Source: Candidatus Woesearchaeota archaeon (GTDB lineage: Archaea; Nanobdellota; Nanobdellia; Woesearchaeales; JAWBMQ01). Taken from it: a stretch of 64,000 nucleotides of DNA. A model generated the notes under the pieces. That model made no database searches. It saw only the letters and a list, made by a program, of their open reading frames with translations, and was not told the DNA's origin. This document shows, in pieces, positions 5,894-43,875 of this stretch (position 1 is the first letter of the stretch; every line of letters begins with the position of its first letter). The stretch is taken from assembly GCA_038825875.1 (NCBI GenBank), contig JAWBOS010000002.1:12607-76606 (forward strand), in the 5' to 3' direction. The position numbers were made by a program, and so were the translations under genes.

Positions 5894-6316
5894 TTATAAA
5901 ATTTTAGCAGTACCCTGGCATAAATCATAAAATTCTAGAACTGAGTTCTTTCTAAGATAAATTAATCCTAGAATCCCTATTTCTTGCAATTTTTTTCTGA
6001 GTTCCTTATCACCTGTAGCAACAATATATGCTTTTGGATCTCTTGAGACTATTTCAATTATTGCTCTATCAACATATTTCTCTTGCGTTTCTATGACTTC
6101 AATATTCTTCCTTTTAATTATTTCTAACAATATTTTTGCATTTACCCTTGTTTTAAGTTTTTGAGTTCTATCATTTTTAATTGCTTCTATTTCCTGAATC
6201 GTAGAGCTTAGAATCGCAATTTTATAATGAAAGGATCTTTCAAGAATCGAGAAGATATCTAACTTTTTTTCAAATGGAAGAAATAAAAAATTTGTGTCTA
6301 TAATTATTTTTACCAT
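5894..6316 (-). CDS. PIN-domain nuclease, Fcf1/Utp24-like.
   Basis: The N-terminal IIIDTNFLF and the YIVATGDKELRKKL motif match Fcf1-type PIN domains. It lies immediately downstream of aRF1. Confidence 0.55.
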   Translation of the reverse strand: MVKIIIDTNFLFLPFEKKLDIFSILERSFHYKIAILSSTIQEIEAIKNDRTQKLKTRVNAKILLEIIKRKNIEVIETQEKYVDRAIIEIVSRDPKAYIVATGDKELRKKLQEIGILGLIYLRKNSVLEFYDLCQGTAKIL

Positions 6317-6334
6317 TTTTGGAATTGTTTATTT

Positions 6335-7432
6335 TTAGTATCTTAATAAAGCAACAACACCGCCAAATTTTCTCAAAATATGACTTTCTCTTAACTCTGG
6401 CGAAATTGGAATAATTTCAGGATTACTATACTTTGAAGTTTCTAATAAGGAATCTAATCTTTCTTTCTCCATATCCTCTAATAATAGAAGTTTTTCAACT
6501 CTTCCTTCTGTTAATCTTTGCAAAACATTTTCAAAAGAGTACTCAACCTTTTCTGGAGTTTTTGCAACAAAAGTCAAAAATTCGTTTATTGCCTGTTTTT
6601 CTCTAATCAACTCTTCTCCCTTCAGCACATCTTCACTAACACTAACCAATTCCTCTAGTCCTGATTCATCAGTGTAAGTAATATCTTTAATTGCAATTAT
6701 TTTTTGTTTTATTTGATCATTTATTCCTGCAGTATTGTAGAAATCATACTTTGTTGGTCCTGGACCTCCTAAAATAATTCCCTTAATTTCTGATAACTGT
6801 GGAAGAAATACATTCTTCATTGCTTCTGCTCCCTCCTTGAAAAACTGTAGCAGTGCCCCTTCTCTAAGCCTAGCAAATCTTTGTGCTGATTGTCCACCTG
6901 CTCTTGCTTTTCCTGGAATATCTGATGTAAGTTGTCTCAAAACTTGAATTGACTTTCCAATCAACATTCCGATCGTTATCTCTCTTCTATCCAAAACCAC
7001 AAGACCATATTTTGTAGTGTCTTTGCACATCTCTTCAAGTGGTTCTGTTAGAAAATTTTTATCACATCTGTAAATTCTAAAATTAATTGGCAATGGAGGT
7101 TCTATAGCCCACACACGCACATCACTTTTTCCCTCTTGAGAAGCAATGTTTCCAGAAAAGATAGCTAATCCATTCTTTGGAGTTTCGTTGTAATTTTTTA
7201 AGAATTGAAGCATTTTTTCTAAAGCATCAATAACATTCTTTCTTGTAACTGCTGACTTTATATTACTTGCTGTATTTCTTTCCTGAAACAAATGTTCCTT
7301 AATCTTATTAATTGAATAATCTGCTGGAACGTAAACTGAAACAAATTCTGTATGCTGTGCTGAATACTTTTTTAACTCTTCAACAATACTCTTTAATTTC
7401 ATTCGTTCTAATTCGTTCATAGAATTCACCAA
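6335..7432 (-). CDS. prf1: Peptide chain release factor aRF1.
   Basis: The NIKS motif (TASNIKSAV) and the GGQ motif (RAGGQSAQRFARL) are both present. Confidence 0.85.
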   Translation of the reverse strand: MVNSMNELERMKLKSIVEELKKYSAQHTEFVSVYVPADYSINKIKEHLFQERNTASNIKSAVTRKNVIDALEKMLQFLKNYNETPKNGLAIFSGNIASQEGKSDVRVWAIEPPLPINFRIYRCDKNFLTEPLEEMCKDTTKYGLVVLDRREITIGMLIGKSIQVLRQLTSDIPGKARAGGQSAQRFARLREGALLQFFKEGAEAMKNVFLPQLSEIKGIILGGPGPTKYDFYNTAGINDQIKQKIIAIKDITYTDESGLEELVSVSEDVLKGEELIREKQAINEFLTFVAKTPEKVEYSFENVLQRLTEGRVEKLLLLEDMEKERLDSLLETSKYSNPEIIPISPELRESHILRKFGGVVALLRY

Positions 7433-7435
7433 AAC

Positions 7436-9835
7436 CTATCCATAATATATTGGAGATTCTATTTGCACAGATCTCTCTCTGAGCGTTTCTCTGAGTTTTT
7501 CAAAGTAATTTATTATTTCTTTGGTAAGAGATGGCTTTACTATCTCTAATGCCTTTTCAAAATGCTTTGAAGTAATGACTGATGCATTTATGTCCTCTCT
7601 TAATGCACACACAACAGCCTCCTTAACCAATGTTGCCAAATCAGCACCACTATAGTTCTCTGTCTTTTTTGCAATCTCTTCCAAATCAACGTCTTTTAAC
7701 GGCACATTCTTTGTATGCACTTTTAAAATAGAAAGTCTTGTCTTAAAATCAGGTGGAGGAACATAAATCAATCTATCAAATCTGCCTGGCCTTAAAAGAG
7801 CAGGATCCACAATATCTGGCCTGTTTGTAGCTGCCATAACTATAACTCCTCTCAAATCCTGAATCCCATCTATTTCTGTCAACAATTGATTAACAACAGA
7901 TTCAATAGCTGAGTGAATCCCAGATCCTCTTCTTGGAGCAATTGAATCAATCTCATCTATAAAAACTATTGAAGGACAGGTCTGTCTTGCTTTGGAAAAG
8001 ATCTTTCTTATTGCTCTTTCACTTTCTCCAACCCATTTACTCAACAACTCTGGCCCTTTTATAGATATGAAATTAGCCTTTGCTTCATTTGCAATTGCCT
8101 TAGCAAGAAGAGTTTTACCTGTTCCAGGAGGACCATAAAGCAACACTCCTCTAGGAGCATCAACACCTAATCTTGAAAATATCTCTGGATGCTTCAATGG
8201 CCATTCCACAACTTCTATTAGTTTCTGTTTCACTTCTTCTAGACCTCCAACATCTTCCCAAGTGATTTTGGGAATCTCTATCAAAACCTCTCGCATTGCA
8301 CTCGGCTTAACAACTTTCAAAGCTTCAAAGAAATCATCTAAGCCTACTTGAAGTTTTTCTAATATATGCTCGGGCACGTTCTCGTCTTTCACTTCTTCTA
8401 AATCAGGTAATAACTTTCTTAATCTTATCATAGCTGCTTCCTTACATAAAGCTGCAAGATCAGCACCCACATAACCATAAGTTACATCTGCCAATTTTTC
8501 AAGTAACAACTCTCTTCCTTTATCGTTCATCTTTTCAAATGCTTTAGGATATGTCTTTTTAATGTATTCTAACTTGTTCTCAAATGTCATCTTAGATATC
8601 TTCTGAATCTCTTCCTGAGATATGTTTTCCTCCTTAAGAACATTTAAAATAAGCATTTCATTTAGCTCTGCTTGCAATGGCATACTTCTTGTATGTATCT
8701 TCAAAATTTCTTTTCTTCCCTCAAAATTAGGAACTGGTATCTCGATTTCTCTATCAAATCTTCCTGGACGCCTTAGTGCTGGATCTACTTCATTTATTAA
8801 GTTAGTTGCTGCAATAACAACCACTTTTCCTCTGCTCTTTAATCCGTCCATTAATGTTAGTAATTGTGCAACAACCCTTCTCTCAACTTCCCCCTTAATC
8901 TCTTCTCTCTTTGGTGCAATTGCATCGATTTCATCTATAAAAATTATACTTGGAGCGTTTTTCTCTGCTTCCTCAAAAATTTTACGAAGATTTGCCTCTG
9001 ATTGTCCATAATACTTGGACATAATTTCAGGACCATTTATAACAAAAAATGATGCATTTGTTTCATTTGCAACTGCTTTAGCAAGCAAGGTTTTTCCAGT
9101 ACCAGGAGGACCGTAGAGAAGTATTCCTTTAGGTGGCTCTACTCCCAATCTCTTAAATATTTCTGGATGCTTTAATGGCAATTCTATCATTTCTCTAACC
9201 TTTTGAACCTCTTCTCTCAAACCACCTATGTCTTCATAAGTTATACCTACCTTCTCCTCTTCTGGCATCTCTTCAGGATTATAGATTATATGAGTCTGTT
9301 CTGTAATTACTACCGGCCCATTTGGAACTGTTTTTAAAACTTTAAATCTAATACCCGATAAACCAAAAGATAAGTCTTGAGTGACTATAGCAAAAAATTC
9401 CTCTGTGGGAGAATCAGAAAAAAATCTTCTCCTTATGCCTCCAAGTCCTACAAGATCTCCTTTGATAACTGCTTTCCCAACTAAACCATTTTTTAACAAA
9501 CTCATAGGATACTGTACAGAAGATTCATTATTAACAGGACCTATTACTACTGTTTCTGCTTCCTTTACTTCTGCAATCTTCACTGTAACAAAATCCCCAA
9601 TAGTTGTTTTTGCATTCTTTCTAATCAAACCATCCATTCGAATTATGTTCAAACCAATATCTCCAGGATACGCTCTCTCAGCAATTGCTACTGTTGATCT
9701 GTTTCCTGTGATTTCCAAAAAGTCTCCAGGCTTTGCTCCTAAATCGTGTAATAATGCAGAATCTATTCTAACTATGCCTTTATTAACATCATCTTGCAAT
9801 GCCTCTGCAACCTTTAGTTTTAATTCCTGAACCAT
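7436..9835 (-). CDS. cdc48: CDC48/VCP-like AAA+ ATPase with tandem AAA domains.
   Basis: The protein has an N-terminal CDC48 N-domain and two Walker A motifs ([22 protein letters not shown] and [22 protein letters not shown]). Each is followed by a DEID Walker B motif and an SRH region. Confidence 0.9.
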
Positions 9836-22307: not shown

Positions 22308-22423
22308 GCCGGAGTAGCTCAGCGGTAGAGCGCCACGCTCATAGGAAATGAGCTCTGAACAGTGATGAAGCTCTGTGGCGCTGAGAAACGTGGAGGTCGA
22401 GGGTTCAAATCCCCCCTCCGGCA
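22308..22423 (+). tRNA. tRNA with anticodon CAU (elongator Met or Ile2) containing a 44-nt intron at the canonical 37/38 position.
   Basis: The acceptor stem is GCCGGAG/CTCCGGC, and the D-arm is GCTC-AGCGGTA-GAGC. The anticodon stem CCACG pairs with CGTGG only when 22344-22387 is removed, leaving the loop CTCATA+A. The T-arm is GAGGG-TTCAAAT-CCCCC. The G1:C72 pair argues against an initiator tRNA. Confidence 0.75.
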
Positions 22424-40193: not shown

Positions 40194-41738
40194 TTATAAC
40201 ATGTCAAAAATTTCTTCTTTTTTCTTAAAATTTGTTTGCTTATGGTAATTTCTAACAAGTTCTTCAAAAAGAGGTATGTAAATAGGAACTGCAAATCTAA
40301 GGAATGCACTTGTAACTATTGCCTCTCCTTTATCTAAACTTGCTATGCTCTTACTTAACTCTTGAATATCTTGTGAAGATGATTGAATAACCACTTCACG
40401 TTCCTTTGCCATTTCAATTCCAAGAATGACCTTTGTGTTCATATTTGCTAAAATCTCTCTAGGAATCATAGAAGGAAGTTGTGTAACTGCAATCAAACCC
40501 AACTTAAATTTTCTTCCCTCTCGAGCAATTGATGAGAAAACGTTACTTTTAGAATCTTCTCCCAATACTCTCCGTGCTTCCTCTAATACAAATGTAACAA
40601 GTGGTTTTTCATCTAACATACCCTGATTCTTATAATATCTAAATCTCTTAAAAATCTCGAAGGCAATTATTGTAGAAATTAGTAATTCCTGTTCCACTCT
40701 AAGATTTGATGTGTCTAAAATTACGGATTTTCCACTTTCAATTGCTGTGAGAATCATATCTATACTATCTTTTTCCTCTTTTTCTTTCTTTTTGAAAACA
40801 CTTTTAAAAGTAAAGTCAACATCAATATCAAACAGAAATGCTAATTTTCTTCTTAGTGCATTAACTGTAACATCTTGTGCTCCTAACTCTTCAATTTCTT
40901 TCTCATTTAGTTTAAAAACTTGTAAAATCCAATCACTCTTATACTTAGAATAAACTCTAAACGCAAACTGTTCTTGAGCTTCACTAAGATTTAATATATC
41001 TATCAAATGATTGGGTTTGATATTATCTAAGTATACCTTTAACATATAAACATTAGAAGTTCTAAATTTTATTGAATCTTGAGATGATGCAAAAAACAAA
41101 ATATTTTGACTATTTTCGTGATCCTTTAAGCCGTATTTCTCATTCAAGGAACCAAAGTAATATTCATTATGTGGATCTAATATGAAAAATGAGATCTTAG
41201 GAAACTTTAAAGCATTCCATATTAGAACCTTAACTAAATTTGACTTTCCTTTTCCTGTTTGAGCAGGTATCAAAACATGATGAGATAAAATTTCATAGGG
41301 ATCCATTCTCAAGGTTTCATGCAGAATCTTACTACCTGAGCGAATATAGCCAATCTCTAATTGTTTGTCAAACAATCCCTTCAGATCTTGTTCATTTATT
41401 GACCTTACTGATTGAAAAAGAGAAGGTATCGTCTTAGCAGAATATGGCCTACCATCTTTTATCATTAGAATTGGTTTACATACCGCTAATTTATATAATC
41501 TCAACTCTCTCTGAAAAACATCAGACTTTTCATCAGTTTCTAGATTAAACCCTGAGAACAATTCCATCTTCTGTTGTGAGATCTGACTTCCGTAAACAAT
41601 ATCACAAACCTCTAATAGGTATTTTTTTGAACCTTCTTCACAAATCAATAATTCTCCTAATTCGATATCATATGAAGACTTTTGTCTAACTAAGATTTCA
41701 TTATAATTTCCACCAACTATAATCCCTACTGTTTGCAT
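40194..41738 (-). CDS. HerA-like ATPase of the FtsK/HerA superfamily (DUF87).
   Basis: The N-terminal HAS-barrel-like segment is GIIVGGNYNEILV. The Walker A motif is PAQTGKGKSNLVK, followed by FILDPHNEYYFG (HerA DPHGEY-like). The Walker B motif is FVLEEARRV, and AVTQLPSMIPREI is QRPS-like. Confidence 0.7.
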   Translation of the reverse strand: MQTVGIIVGGNYNEILVRQKSSYDIELGELLICEEGSKKYLLEVCDIVYGSQISQQKMELFSGFNLETDEKSDVFQRELRLYKLAVCKPILMIKDGRPYSAKTIPSLFQSVRSINEQDLKGLFDKQLEIGYIRSGSKILHETLRMDPYEILSHHVLIPAQTGKGKSNLVKVLIWNALKFPKISFFILDPHNEYYFGSLNEKYGLKDHENSQNILFFASSQDSIKFRTSNVYMLKVYLDNIKPNHLIDILNLSEAQEQFAFRVYSKYKSDWILQVFKLNEKEIEELGAQDVTVNALRRKLAFLFDIDVDFTFKSVFKKKEKEEKDSIDMILTAIESGKSVILDTSNLRVEQELLISTIIAFEIFKRFRYYKNQGMLDEKPLVTFVLEEARRVLGEDSKSNVFSSIAREGRKFKLGLIAVTQLPSMIPREILANMNTKVILGIEMAKEREVVIQSSSQDIQELSKSIASLDKGEAIVTSAFLRFAVPIYIPLFEELVRNYHKQTNFKKKEEIFDML

Positions 41739-42481
41739 CTTATTTCACCCTGTTGTTTTCTCTCTGACAACTCATAATTAATCAAATTATAAATTTCCTC
41801 CTCAGTTATTGCACATCCACTCTTTTTTAATTTCCATAGCAAACTTTCCAAAATAATTGAATCAATATTATTCATTTGATAAAGAGTAGTATCAATCTTC
41901 CTAAAATCATCATAGAACCCATTTTCAAAGGCTATTAAAACTAATTCAGCAGATCTACATACTTTCAAATTCCTAAACTTTTCAATCAAAATCTTTTTGT
42001 TTTCTTCATTGAGAGCAACCTTAGTATGCAATTTTTCTTCAAATCTTTTTCTCAATTTTTCAATATCCTCTATTAATAATCTTGCACTAATTTCATCTAT
42101 AACTGCTAATTCAACATTTCTAGTTAAGATGAGCCCAAAAACCTCTGCTTCCCCCAAATCAAGAACTTTAATAGGATTATCATTAACAAAAAAGAGATTA
42201 TTACTAAGATTTATAATAAGTTCTCTTAACACTTCTGTTCTTTCATCTTCTACTAAGGTAATAATTTTTTTTGTCATATAATTCAAAACCTCTAATGCCT
42301 CACACATATAACTTTTTGTTTGAAATGCTTTATCAACTACTTCATATTTTACATATTTAGGGATTATCCAATCCACATCAAAATATTTTTTAAATCTTTC
42401 AAGAATAAACAAATTACCCGAAAGAAGCAAAGAAATTATTGGACCTGCATCTAAAACGATCTCAACCACGATTTTCACCAA
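41726..42481 (-). CDS. PIN-domain nuclease-like protein with a C-terminal extension.
   Basis: The N-terminal IVLDAGPIISLL places a PIN-like aspartate at D11. The acidic residues lie at about E47, D108/E110/E112 (DLGEAEV) and D129 (AVIDE), which mirrors the PIN four-acid arrangement. The ORF overlaps both neighbours (13 nt and 20 nt). Confidence 0.45.
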   Translation of the reverse strand: MVKIVVEIVLDAGPIISLLLSGNLFILERFKKYFDVDWIIPKYVKYEVVDKAFQTKSYMCEALEVLNYMTKKIITLVEDERTEVLRELIINLSNNLFFVNDNPIKVLDLGEAEVFGLILTRNVELAVIDEISARLLIEDIEKLRKRFEEKLHTKVALNEENKKILIEKFRNLKVCRSAELVLIAFENGFYDDFRKIDTTLYQMNNIDSIILESLLWKLKKSGCAITEEEIYNLINYELSERKQQGEIRCKQ

Positions 42482-43061
42482 TTAAAAAATCATATATCAA
42501 TTTACTCCAGGTCTCAAATTTTTCATACAACTCTTTTATTTCTTCCAATGATGAAAATTTAAATTCCTGAATCTCATCTTGACAAACTTCAATATCTGTC
42601 CTAAAAAGGGAAACTAAATAAACAATTCCAAAATGTACTTTTCCAACTTCATTAGAATCATCATTGATGTATCCCAATAGATCTAAAGAAAAATCAGATG
42701 ATATACCTATTTCTTCTCTTATCTCTCTTAAAACACTTTCAGTAATTATATTTCTTGAATGATCTGTGGGAATATCAATTCTCTCAATGTGACCACCTAC
42801 ACCAAGACTCCACTTATCACTTAATCTCTTCTCATTATAGTTCTTATTTCCTCTCTTATATACAAAAAAATCATTATTAGAATTCCTAATTATTGCATAA
42901 GGAATAATCTGCTTGTAGGTTTTGTCATTTTCTGCAACCTCTCGATTAATAAACTCATACTCTTTTAAAATTATTGAGATATAATCAAAAAACTCCTTTT
43001 TCACAAAACCCTGAAACCTTGATTTCAATAATGACTCCCTTTTAACCACTAATACCTCCAT
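42462..43061 (-). CDS. Nudix hydrolase, with a divergent Nudix box.
   Basis: The segment GVGGHIERIDIPTDHSRNIITESVLREIREEIGI has a Nudix-box-like REx2EExG pattern with an insertion. It is the first gene of the overlapping three-gene operon. Confidence 0.5.
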   Translation of the reverse strand: MEVLVVKRESLLKSRFQGFVKKEFFDYISIILKEYEFINREVAENDKTYKQIIPYAIIRNSNNDFFVYKRGNKNYNEKRLSDKWSLGVGGHIERIDIPTDHSRNIITESVLREIREEIGISSDFSLDLLGYINDDSNEVGKVHFGIVYLVSLFRTDIEVCQDEIQEFKFSSLEEIKELYEKFETWSKLIYDFLIGENRG

Positions 43062-43197
43062 AAAACTTACAAGTGAACGTTTTTTTATATTTTTTTCTTT
43101 TTGTTATTGCATATCTAACAAATACAACATGCAAATGAAAAATCATAAAAATCTAACACACAAAATATAAATATATCATTTTCTTCAATTATATTTA

Positions 43198-43875
43198 ATG
43201 ATGTGGGATTTTGATTATGAAAACCTAATCAATCTACTAGTAGAGAACTTGGATGAATGTAGAATTTATGAAATTCCCATTGGAATTAGAGATGTGTGGT
43301 TTGGAACAAAGAAATTTTTAAAAATCTCACTAAAAGTTCCTTGTCCTATTTGCGAAGGAAAAAGATATTTTCTTAGCGTATTTGAATGTGAAACCTGCAA
43401 TGGAACTGGAAAGGTAAAAAAAGTAATAGAAACAGAAGACTTGAAAATTTTCAAAATTGAAACATGTCCATCTTGCAAAGGGAATGGAAGAAAGTTGATT
43501 AAGTGTAGATGTAACCAAGGTTTTGAAGAAACTGAAAAAAACTTTGTTATAAATTTACCTCCTGGATGTGAACAGAATGAACATGTATTAATTAGAGAAC
43601 GTGACTTTTTAAATGAAGCAATCTATGGAAAAATAAAAATTGTAGATCCTATTTTTGAAATAAACGACTTAGATCTTATTCTCAAAATAACCCTTGAAAA
43701 AACTACAATTCTTGAAAAAAAGAAGATAGAAATAAAACATCCTATAAGATCTATTTTCTTAAGCACAGAAGAGCTATTAAGACAAAATATCATAGAAATA
43801 CCTGAAATGGGACTAATTAATAGAAAAAAAGAGAAAGGAAAATTGAAAATATATGTCCAAAGAATTGAAGAATGA
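43198..43875 (+). CDS. DnaJ-type zinc-finger / C-terminal domain protein lacking a J domain.
   Basis: It has repeated CxxCxGxG units (CPICEGKR, CETCNGTGK and CPSCKGNGR). A DnaJ-CTD-like beta region follows. Confidence 0.4.
   Translation: MMWDFDYENLINLLVENLDECRIYEIPIGIRDVWFGTKKFLKISLKVPCPICEGKRYFLSVFECETCNGTGKVKKVIETEDLKIFKIETCPSCKGNGRKLIKCRCNQGFEETEKNFVINLPPGCEQNEHVLIRERDFLNEAIYGKIKIVDPIFEINDLDLILKITLEKTTILEKKKIEIKHPIRSIFLSTEELLRQNIIEIPEMGLINRKKEKGKLKIYVQRIEE

Follow-up and report, generated by a model that had tools for sequence, protein, structure and literature searches.

Within the 64-kb stretch of DNA analysed here, which we call the window, three genes on the minus strand overlap one another: a Nudix hydrolase gene (42462-43061, 199 aa, an open reading frame read from the sequence), a PIN-like gene (41726-42481, 251 aa from a TTG start) and a gene for a HerA-like ATPase (40194-41738, 514 aa). 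An alternative GTG start of the Nudix gene at 43049, on the same strand, gives the 195-aa protein of the public gene call. An earlier note on this DNA had reported three overlapping minus-strand reading frames, and this is confirmed, with overlaps of 20 nt (Nudix/PIN) and 13 nt (PIN/HerA) when the starts above are used. The start of the PIN-like gene is ambiguous, the candidates being the TTG at 42481, the GTG one codon further on, which is implied by the public gene call (250 aa), and a GTG at 42469. The last of these has an SD-like GGTGA 5 nt before it and yields a 247-aa protein with the homolog-like N-terminus M-x-x-I-V-L-D-A-G-P; judged from these features it is likely to be the true start, with which the Nudix/PIN overlap becomes 8 nt (GTGGTTGA). 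The ATG of the ATPase gene also follows a GGTGA, placed 6 nt upstream.

An AT-rich intergenic region (43062-43197, minus strand) separates the Nudix gene from a divergent DnaJ-like gene, and a TATA-like element read there, AAATATAAAA, begins approximately 30 nt upstream of the Nudix ATG. This region is the probable promoter for the three-gene string, and the three genes probably share one transcript. Of the 13 gene pairs that share a strand on this organism's public contig, 4 overlap and a further 4 lie no more than 11 nt apart, pairs of unrelated genes such as HIT/ArgRS/ZPR1 among them, and close spacing of genes is thus usual for this genome. The overlaps within the three-gene string are real, but as evidence for functional coupling they are weak. 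The flanking genes are of a housekeeping character, encoding ribosomal proteins, tRNA synthetases, SepF and MgtE.

The first gene, by profile and sequence comparison, is a divergent TM1382-like Nudix of the kind annotated as 'predicted NUDIX family phosphoesterase', in agreement with the earlier description of it as a divergent Nudix hydrolase. The protein scores 33.5 bits with Pfam PF00293, whose cut-off is 21.1, and is similar over its full length to TM1382 (PDB 3E57, E = 2.8e-25). Like TM1382-like proteins it has an intact and family-invariant catalytic stretch (REUXEEXGU) in its Nudix box, here REIREEIGI at residue 112, in which E113, E116 and E117 are invariant among 26 family members. 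Unlike them it has, as read from the sequence, an atypical N-terminal half of the box (GX5EX7REUXEEXGU) that carries an insertion, and its position upstream of a PIN-like gene is lineage-specific.

Fold comparison identifies the 251-aa product of the second gene as a PIN-fold protein, an alpha/beta/alpha sandwich with a parallel beta-sheet, and bears out the earlier assignment to PIN and not NurA; neither the NurA domain (PF09376) nor the NurA fold is present. This identification comes from fold comparison only, since PDB sequence searches with the single sequence and with a family profile returned nothing useful. Among solved structures the protein most resembles VapC toxins, and the VapC proteins matched are RNases. 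Among 28 aligned members of the family D11 is nearly invariant and E47, E111 and D129/E130 are invariant, such that three of the acidic residues singled out in the earlier note (D11, E47 and D129) stand, while the fourth, D108, is not conserved and E111 is conserved instead. The protein is a predicted metal-dependent nuclease of VapC/COG2405-like type. It has no match to Pfam PF11848 (DUF3368) at E <= 1, none of the 28 family members matches this profile at E <= 0.01, and an hhalign comparison with a classical DUF3368 protein yields E = 1e-3 with 21% probability; on these comparisons it is a distant relative of DUF3368 that by Pfam's criterion is not a member. A C-terminal helical extension (approximately residues 190-245) has a weak match to SAM_DprA only (E = 0.056).

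HerA is a hexameric DNA translocase that takes part in DNA-end resection together with Mre11-Rad50 and the nuclease NurA. The product of the third gene matches Pfam DUF87 (PF01935) over residues 128-358 (82.4 bits, the cut-off being 23.2), and the motifs noticed earlier are all present, GKGKS at residue 162, DPHNEY at 188, EEA at 386 (VLEEA) and QLPS at 420. The Walker residues G162, G164, K165, S166, E386 and E387 do not vary among 17 orthologs. Its best PDB matches are 9X1L, the Thermococcus kodakarensis HerA-NurA complex (PMC12977600), and 4D2I, the Sulfolobus solfataricus HerA, with which residues 23-493 align, and together with the DUF87 score these place the ATPase in the HerA clade, as had been proposed. 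The alignments to 4D2I and to NF040937 begin at residue 23 (target position 21) and so include the N-terminal domain, a putative HAS-barrel. The best NCBIfam matches are the repair HerA equivalogs NF040819 and NF040937, although the scores lie far under the cut-offs (95 bits vs 970 and 81.8 vs 800); DPANN orthologs encoded beside Mre11 score equally low, and the shortfall therefore reflects divergence and not membership of another family. HerA profiles from PADLOC also match (E = 6e-26), yet defence HerAs match less well than repair HerAs do, and mainly over the C-terminal ATPase portion.

Orthologs of this HerA with 41-46% identity have NurA, Mre11 and Rad50 as neighbours: Mre11 follows downstream within 5 kb in 21 of the 43 loci that are informative, NurA (PF09376, up to 107 bits) immediately precedes herA in at least 8, and the complete nurA-herA-mre11-rad50 order occurs in two (L133 and L142). 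Since orthologs of the window ATPase sit in such clusters, or in herA-mre11 clusters, it is an ordinary repair HerA, the ortholog of the canonical archaeal HerA of double-strand-break repair. We also considered whether NurA-linked and PIN-linked HerAs might be separate paralogs and rejected this, because a neighbour-joining tree of 100 HerAs, rough and without support values, forms a single family with clade-specific gene order. The earlier remark that the canonical partners are absent holds for the window, in whose 64 kb NurA, Mre11 and Rad50 were not found, but not for the orthologous loci, where they do occur beside HerA; in the window organism they are presumably encoded beyond the 64 kb. 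In comparison with the archaeal HerA-NurA(-Mre11-Rad50) machinery, then, the window ATPase shares the DUF87/HerA core, both Walker motifs and the full-length alignment to 4D2I, and its orthologs lie in the clusters named above; it differs in its low equivalog score and in being preceded by PIN-fold and Nudix genes in a window that lacks the usual partners.

The earlier note had proposed that the Nudix, PIN and HerA genes form a functional module, and had named a neighbourhood not conserved in related genomes as the outcome that would count against it. The triad proved to be confined to the narrow clade of the window (the window/L093, L001/L002 and L090), which is syntenic over about 10-13 kb, and outside this clade a Nudix gene occurs in none of 80 PIN-centred and none of 80 HerA-centred loci, gene calls in the fetched loci being those of a crude ORF caller. 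Nudix homologs in other Woesearchaeota sit among unrelated genes. With Nudix adjacency limited to one narrow syntenic clade, the triad as a functional module is unsupported, even though the domain annotation of the three genes was right. Our literature search returned nothing relevant on HerA with PIN/DUF3368, on NurA in Woesearchaeota or on TM1382/COG4112.

The association of the PIN-like gene with herA is wider than the triad, and looser than its association with the divergent oapABC operon. OapA lies upstream of the PIN gene in 32 of 59 loci, and HerA lies downstream of it in 17 of 56 PIN-centred loci (~30%), 6-1763 nt away (median 745), leaving approximately 70% of PIN loci with no HerA within the flank; the related-locus search for the PIN-like family used a 12-sequence alignment subset. 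The order UPF-like gene, PIN gene, small gene, herA, mre11 on one strand recurs in 17/56 PIN-centred and 10/44 HerA-centred loci, and spacing between PIN and HerA genes in linked relatives is usually 0.4-1.8 kb, with variable genes in between. Direct adjacency or overlap of the two is seen in L040, L045, L047, L057 and the window clade, where the 13-nt overlap of the window corresponds to a 9-nt gap in L001. NurA and the PIN pair are found together in L042, L115 and L135; replacement of NurA by the PIN-like protein was accordingly considered and rejected, as the clade retains NurA and, in L042, encodes it no more than 4 kb from the PIN pair.

The conserved partner of the PIN-like protein is neither HerA nor Nudix but a UPF0175-like HTH protein. 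This is an unannotated protein of ~184 aa, comprising a helical bundle and a UPF0175-like HTH domain, which matches Pfam UPF0175 only below the threshold (E = 0.002-0.02). Among 75 loci of species-representative genomes, 67 have its gene next to the PIN-like gene, normally with a 4-nt overlap, and UPF-PIN fusion proteins of 400-430 aa account for 23 of the top 150 cluster representatives (~15%). The suggestion that the upstream partner of distant PIN homologs is a diverged Nudix was rejected, no similarity being found. The partner gene was not found in the 64-kb window, and several lineages, the window included, have an intact PIN catalytic set without an adjacent UPF0175-like gene; in the window, therefore, the PIN protein, which keeps its catalytic residues, must be tolerated or else be regulated by other means.

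Drawing on the folds, family memberships and neighbourhood statistics observed here for the three genes, the explanation that we favour, with moderate confidence, is that three genes with separate jobs, probably transcribed as one string, have been packed together in one narrow lineage of a streamlined, Woesearchaeota-type DPANN archaeon. The ATPase would act as the organism's ordinary repair HerA, with NurA and Mre11-Rad50 in end resection; the PIN-like protein would represent a vertically inherited family of metal-dependent nucleases whose usual UPF0175-like partner is missing in the window; and the Nudix would be a TM1382-family hydrolase filling the slot upstream of the PIN gene in the window lineage. 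The ancestral order in a large Woesearchaeota clade would have been oapCBA, UPF-like gene, PIN gene, small gene, herA, mre11, and the PIN gene would lie near herA because of this ancestral synteny, while the overlaps in the window are proposed to have arisen by deletion of the DNA in between. Several observations count against this explanation. Protein identities of 33-45% are deep for synteny to persist without a functional reason; the PIN and herA genes abut or overlap throughout the window clade; the catalytic residues of the window PIN are all kept despite the missing partner gene; and the lineage may truly have lost NurA, Mre11, Rad50 and the UPF-like partner gene, which the search of the 64 kb did not find.

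A functional tie between the PIN nuclease and HerA is the first thing to weigh against simple packing. The nuclease, normally with its HTH partner, might be an accessory or alternative nuclease of HerA-Mre11, docking on HerA or acting on translocated DNA in the manner of NurA, and the pairing might have been tightened into an overlapping operon in the window lineage. The five-gene order described above, recurring at 33-45% identity, argues for such a role, as do the loci in which PIN and HerA genes are adjacent or overlapping; in the large clade, moreover, the PIN pair holds the slot directly upstream of herA that belongs to NurA in basal clades, and NurA itself is placed in the PIN-like superfamily. 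We nevertheless consider it unlikely, because most linked PIN and HerA genes are 0.4-1.8 kb apart with variable intervening genes, linkage to herA is weaker than that to oapABC, and most PIN loci have no HerA in the flank. NurA persists in the clade together with the PIN pair, all fusions join PIN to the UPF-like protein, with 0 of the 150 listed representatives long enough for a PIN-HerA fusion, and the fold is VapC-like, the solved VapC matches being RNases. A related and improbable version would make the PIN/HTH pair a domesticated accessory of HerA-Mre11 end-processing and not a toxin-antitoxin, which would account for its position upstream of herA-mre11 across the Woesearchaeota clade; the window lineage would then have been rewired through loss of the HTH partner, recruitment of the Nudix and translational coupling of PIN to herA.

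Simple packing must also be set against two further readings. The PIN-like gene could be the orphan toxin of a UPF0175/COG2405-type toxin-antitoxin module, its antitoxin lost or moved and its proximity to herA incidental; the VapC fold and structural matches, the weak UPF0175 HTH match and typical 4-nt overlap of the usual upstream partner, and weak PADLOC PDC-S70 matches of the PIN-like protein are all consistent with this. It is quite improbable in view of the deep conservation of the neighbourhood, which suggests vertical inheritance, and of the single copy per fetched locus, unlike mobile and patchy toxin-antitoxin loci. The proteins are also large (184 + 230 aa, against ~99 + 163 aa for a classical pair in L003), relatives are absent from the phage and plasmid collections searched, and a true toxin should not tolerate the intact catalytic set that several lineages keep without an adjacent partner. 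The remaining reading is the one raised in the earlier note, a dedicated system of three components for defence or against mobile elements, in which the Nudix would process a nucleotide signal or 5' ends. HerA-family ATPases do have a range of effector partners in defence systems already described, the three genes overlap tightly and the PADLOC HerA profiles match at the level given above; as in Sir2-HerA, DUF4297-HerA and TdpAB, the window HerA-family ATPase adjoins a gene for a predicted nuclease or effector. Even so, we regard this role as very improbable. The triad is limited to one narrow clade that is syntenic over >12 kb, with Nudix in 0/160 PIN- or HerA-centred loci, and its HerA is an ortholog of the canonical repair HerA, which in relatives has NurA, Mre11 and Rad50 as neighbours. 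Housekeeping genes, not a defence island, surround the triad, the Nudix protein has no PADLOC match, the PIN-like protein has no phage or plasmid relatives in the collections searched, and no Sir2, DUF4297 or TdpB-type effector is annotated near the window HerA.

A new three-part machine would have been notable, and the evidence points to ordinary genes packed in a streamlined genome. The interest that remains is modest and lies with the uncharacterised DPANN PIN/HTH pair, which carries no Pfam or other annotation, appears to be vertically inherited and is found beside herA-mre11 in many Woesearchaeota; to our knowledge, DNA repair in these organisms is essentially unstudied. If it is true that the pair acts with HerA, it would provide a second nuclease for archaeal end resection, and if it does not, it would represent a toxin-antitoxin-like module turned stable chromosomal fixture. 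A point of comparison is the UPF0175/COG2405 (DUF3368) PIN toxin-antitoxin-like modules (Matelska et al. 2017, PMC5499597; structure SSO1118, 2MDT). Unlike these, the DPANN pair is larger (~230 + ~184 aa) and falls below Pfam thresholds, keeps its place next to oapABC and herA-mre11 over deep divergence, and is frequently fused, while its HTH member is absent from the window. Both families are extensive, the partner comprising at least 630 clusters at 90% identity and the unannotated PIN-like family, seen here only in DPANN archaea, 633 clusters at 50% identity.

In the Nudix, PIN-like and HerA-like genes, one lineage with a streamlined genome has probably squeezed together, to the point of overlap, a housekeeping-type Nudix, a PIN nuclease that lacks its customary neighbour and a canonical repair HerA. 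All three lie on the minus strand, the Nudix gene at 42462-43061 (199 aa), the PIN-like gene at 41726-42481 (TTG start, 251 aa) and the HerA-like gene at 40194-41738 (514 aa), exactly where the earlier note had placed them, and its overlaps of 20 nt and 13 nt are reproduced with these starts. The junction sequences contain an SD-like GGTGA 6 nt ahead of the herA ATG and a second GGTGA 5 nt ahead of a GTG at 42469 within the PIN-like gene; since this GTG yields an N-terminus matching all homologs, the Nudix/PIN overlap is probably 8 nt rather than 20 nt. Given these signals, and the AT-rich stretch of 136 bp upstream of the Nudix gene, which contains a TATA-like element, the three genes are plausibly carried on a single transcript. 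Gene overlap is nothing special in this genome: of 13 same-strand gene pairs on a public contig of this organism, 4 overlap and another 4 are separated by at most 11 nt, and these pairs include the unrelated HIT, ArgRS and ZPR1.

The Nudix protein matches PF00293 (33.5 bits) and, over its full length, the uncharacterised Thermotoga protein TM1382 (3E57, E = 2.8e-25), and carries REIREEIGI at residue 112, which upholds its original assignment. Across the family E113, E116 and E117 never vary and R112 hardly does, and the protein is probably an active hydrolase. The family is spread broadly across DPANN archaea, CPR bacteria, Firmicutes and Planctomycetota; a literature search on TM1382-like Nudix proteins found nothing. 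Two homologs from other Woesearchaeota, with 46% and 41% identity, have neighbours unrelated to those in the window: one lies beside SpoU methylase and PGK, the other beside QueH and a phosphoesterase.

The 251-aa protein has no significant match in Pfam, NCBIfam or PDB sequences, and PADLOC PDC-S70 matches it weakly. Homolog searches place its relatives solely in DPANN archaea (Woesearchaeota, Pacearchaeota, Nanoarchaeota and Aenigmatarchaeota), and an exhaustive profile search delimits the family sharply, at 633 clusters (50% identity). Its AlphaFold2 model (pLDDT 95.4, from a 28-sequence alignment) is matched by Foldseek to VapC structures with probability 1.0, and within the family E47, E111, D129 and E130 are fully conserved and D11 almost so. 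The protein therefore has a PIN fold and an intact acidic set, as had been guessed; of the acidic residues then proposed, D11, E47 and D129 stand, but D108 is not conserved. By the Pfam criterion, no family member belongs to DUF3368 at E <= 0.01, and hhalign against a classical DUF3368 protein reaches just E = 1e-3. One locus, L003, holds a classical pair of small UPF0175 (99 aa) and DUF3368 PIN (163 aa) genes at 6726-7523 (-), immediately adjoining a long DPANN-type PIN gene at 6001-6690, so that the two types coexist in one genome and are distinct.

The real partner of the PIN protein is a ~184-aa protein encoded upstream, typically with a 4-nt overlap. Relatives of the PIN protein occur in 285 genomes, and among 80 loci fetched from species-representative genomes the partner gene lies directly upstream in 67 of 75 informative cases; genes were called by a crude longest-ORF method, and this and the other neighbour frequencies hinge on tblastn thresholds and available flank length. 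Natural fusions of partner and PIN, of 400-430 aa, make up 23 of the 150 top cluster representatives and occur also in the homologous protein P0004 and in locus L021, and none of the 150 listed PIN cluster representatives is long enough for a HerA fusion. At its C-terminus the partner resembles UPF0175/HTH weakly (E = 0.002-0.02); its family comprises at least 630 clusters, all labelled hypothetical and none with a Pfam match, and every taxon-bearing source name is Woesearchaeota or Nanoarchaeota. On the favoured reading, the window PIN would be a nuclease of this DPANN family whose customary neighbouring partner is gone.

The HerA-clade call for the ATPase is likewise confirmed (Pfam DUF87/HerA, 82.4 bits), and its sequence contains the motifs reported for it, namely GKGKS (residue 162), DPHNEY (188), EEA (386) and QLPS (420). 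In NCBIfam, where every match falls far under its cut-off, it scores best against the two equivalogs for HerA of double-strand-break repair, with CedD and anti-phage HerAs ranking lower. The two best solved relatives are canonical repair HerAs: the closest is 9X1L (E = 1.2e-21), the Thermococcus kodakarensis HerA-NurA complex (PMC12977600), and S. solfataricus HerA 4D2I aligns over residues 23-493 (E = 1.7e-20), whereas defence-system HerAs match more weakly and only in the C-terminal ATPase region. The canonical partners had been described as missing, and indeed neither NurA, Mre11 nor a UPF-like gene is found within the window's 64 kb, but NurA, Mre11 and Rad50-like genes adjoin HerA in orthologous loci. 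Among 80 metagenome loci centred on HerA, an Mre11-like gene lies within 5 kb downstream in 21 of 43 and a PIN gene within 3 kb upstream in 10 of 44. De novo neighbour clustering brought out a genuine NurA, scoring up to 107.5 bits against PF09376, whose gene immediately precedes that of HerA in L097, L132, L133, L140, L142, L143, L158 and L168; L133 and L142 have the order nurA-herA-mre11, and next comes a Rad50-like gene of 837 aa with AAA_23 and SbcC Walker B domains. In a rough neighbour-joining tree, 100 HerAs form a single family, with NurA-adjacent forms and the long-branched window clade near its base and one large clade having the UPF-PIN pair upstream. The window protein is a canonical repair HerA.

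The suggestion that the three genes form a dedicated defence triad is highly improbable: the domain assignments were right, but the leap to a three-component module was wrong. A Nudix gene is adjacent in 0 of 80 PIN-centred and 0 of 80 HerA-centred loci, and the triad recurs solely among the window's nearest relatives (window/L093, L001/L002 and L090), whose PIN proteins are 52-54% identical to that of the window. Because these relatives are collinear from ribosomal protein S19e to at least ZPR1 and, given enough flank, as far as SepF/MgtE, their triads are not independent observations. The main rival, that the PIN nuclease cooperates with HerA-Mre11, we regard as unlikely. Order and strand are consistent at deep divergence, but linkage is incomplete, with an orthologous HerA (41-45% identity) downstream on the same strand in 17 of 56 informative PIN-centred loci, and spacing is loose, at 6-1763 nt (median 745), the space between usually being taken by a gene for a small basic repeat protein or by other genes that vary. 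A divergent oapC-oapB-oapA operon is linked to the pair more tightly (OapA within 3 kb upstream in 32 of 59 loci), the pattern expected from regional synteny. Furthermore, fusions are exclusively to the HTH partner, and NurA co-occurs: it persists inside the large UPF-PIN clade (L115, L135) and lies ~3.8 kb from the pair in L042 (E = 5e-49 against an HMM of NurA proteins from HerA-centred loci; 22.1 bits against a Pfam cut-off of 21), which rules out the PIN protein as a NurA replacement.

That the PIN protein is the orphan toxin of a toxin-antitoxin module is more doubtful still. According to Matelska et al. (2017, PMC5499597), UPF0175 is found only beside COG2405 PIN proteins, and the pair is treated as a putative toxin-antitoxin. 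The DPANN pair departs from that classical case: both proteins are larger, conservation of their neighbourhood over deep divergence points to vertical inheritance, no relatives were found on phages or plasmids, and several lineages, including the window clade and those with CofD or cluster c18 upstream, retain an intact PIN without an adjacent partner; together these argue against a classical addiction module.

Several features of the surrounding loci deserve mention. The oap operon is kept upstream of the UPF-PIN pair, for example at L008:3740-5190 and L019:3200-4378; OapA is a small GTPase of a family tied to vesicle formation in haloarchaea (PMC10927574). Many Woesearchaeota also have upstream a short 392-aa MCM-like protein, in which the P-loop and lid domains are the sole MCM parts detected; neither this gene nor oapC, oapB or oapA occurs in the window. 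Assemblies named 'uncultured Methanosarcinales' (L012, L016, L018, L022 and others) have the same neighbourhood as Woesearchaeota/Nanoarchaeota loci, and since it is otherwise seen solely in DPANN-labelled assemblies these labels look mistaken. A minority of lineages have another gene in place of the UPF-like partner: in L003 (whose contig is also L055) and L031 it encodes a CofD-family protein and, in L003, shares 4 nt with the PIN gene. Before it comes a gene for an unannotated protein of ~310 aa (cluster c18), which in L012 and L052 itself lies directly upstream of the PIN gene. Between the PIN gene and herA, at least 12 loci encode a very basic protein of ~80-150 aa (e.g. L041:5821-6132, +) with the internal tandem repeat KVAKVGVKKKSGYLYF[VI]DKQGDVSCAKM and no Pfam match. 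The 1026-aa HerA ortholog at L008:6903-9983 (+) has its ATPase domain interrupted by an intein that contains LAGLIDADG homing-endonuclease and HTH domains; the insertion separates the two stretches alignable with the window HerA, at about residues 166 and 643 of the 1026-aa protein. GGDEF signalling proteins are uncommon among archaea; two DPANN loci encode proteins of 512 aa (L022:7710-9248, +, directly downstream of herA) and 527 aa (L014:6481-8064, +) that contain such a diguanylate-cyclase domain, GGDEF (E about 1e-37). In the window, the divergent neighbour of the Nudix gene (43198-43875, +; 225 aa) has DnaJ CXXCXGXG zinc-finger and C-terminal domains, with no J domain detected, and a 116-nt tRNA at 22308-22423 (+), found by Rfam (58 bits) and missed by ARAGORN, is probably an intron-containing archaeal tRNA.
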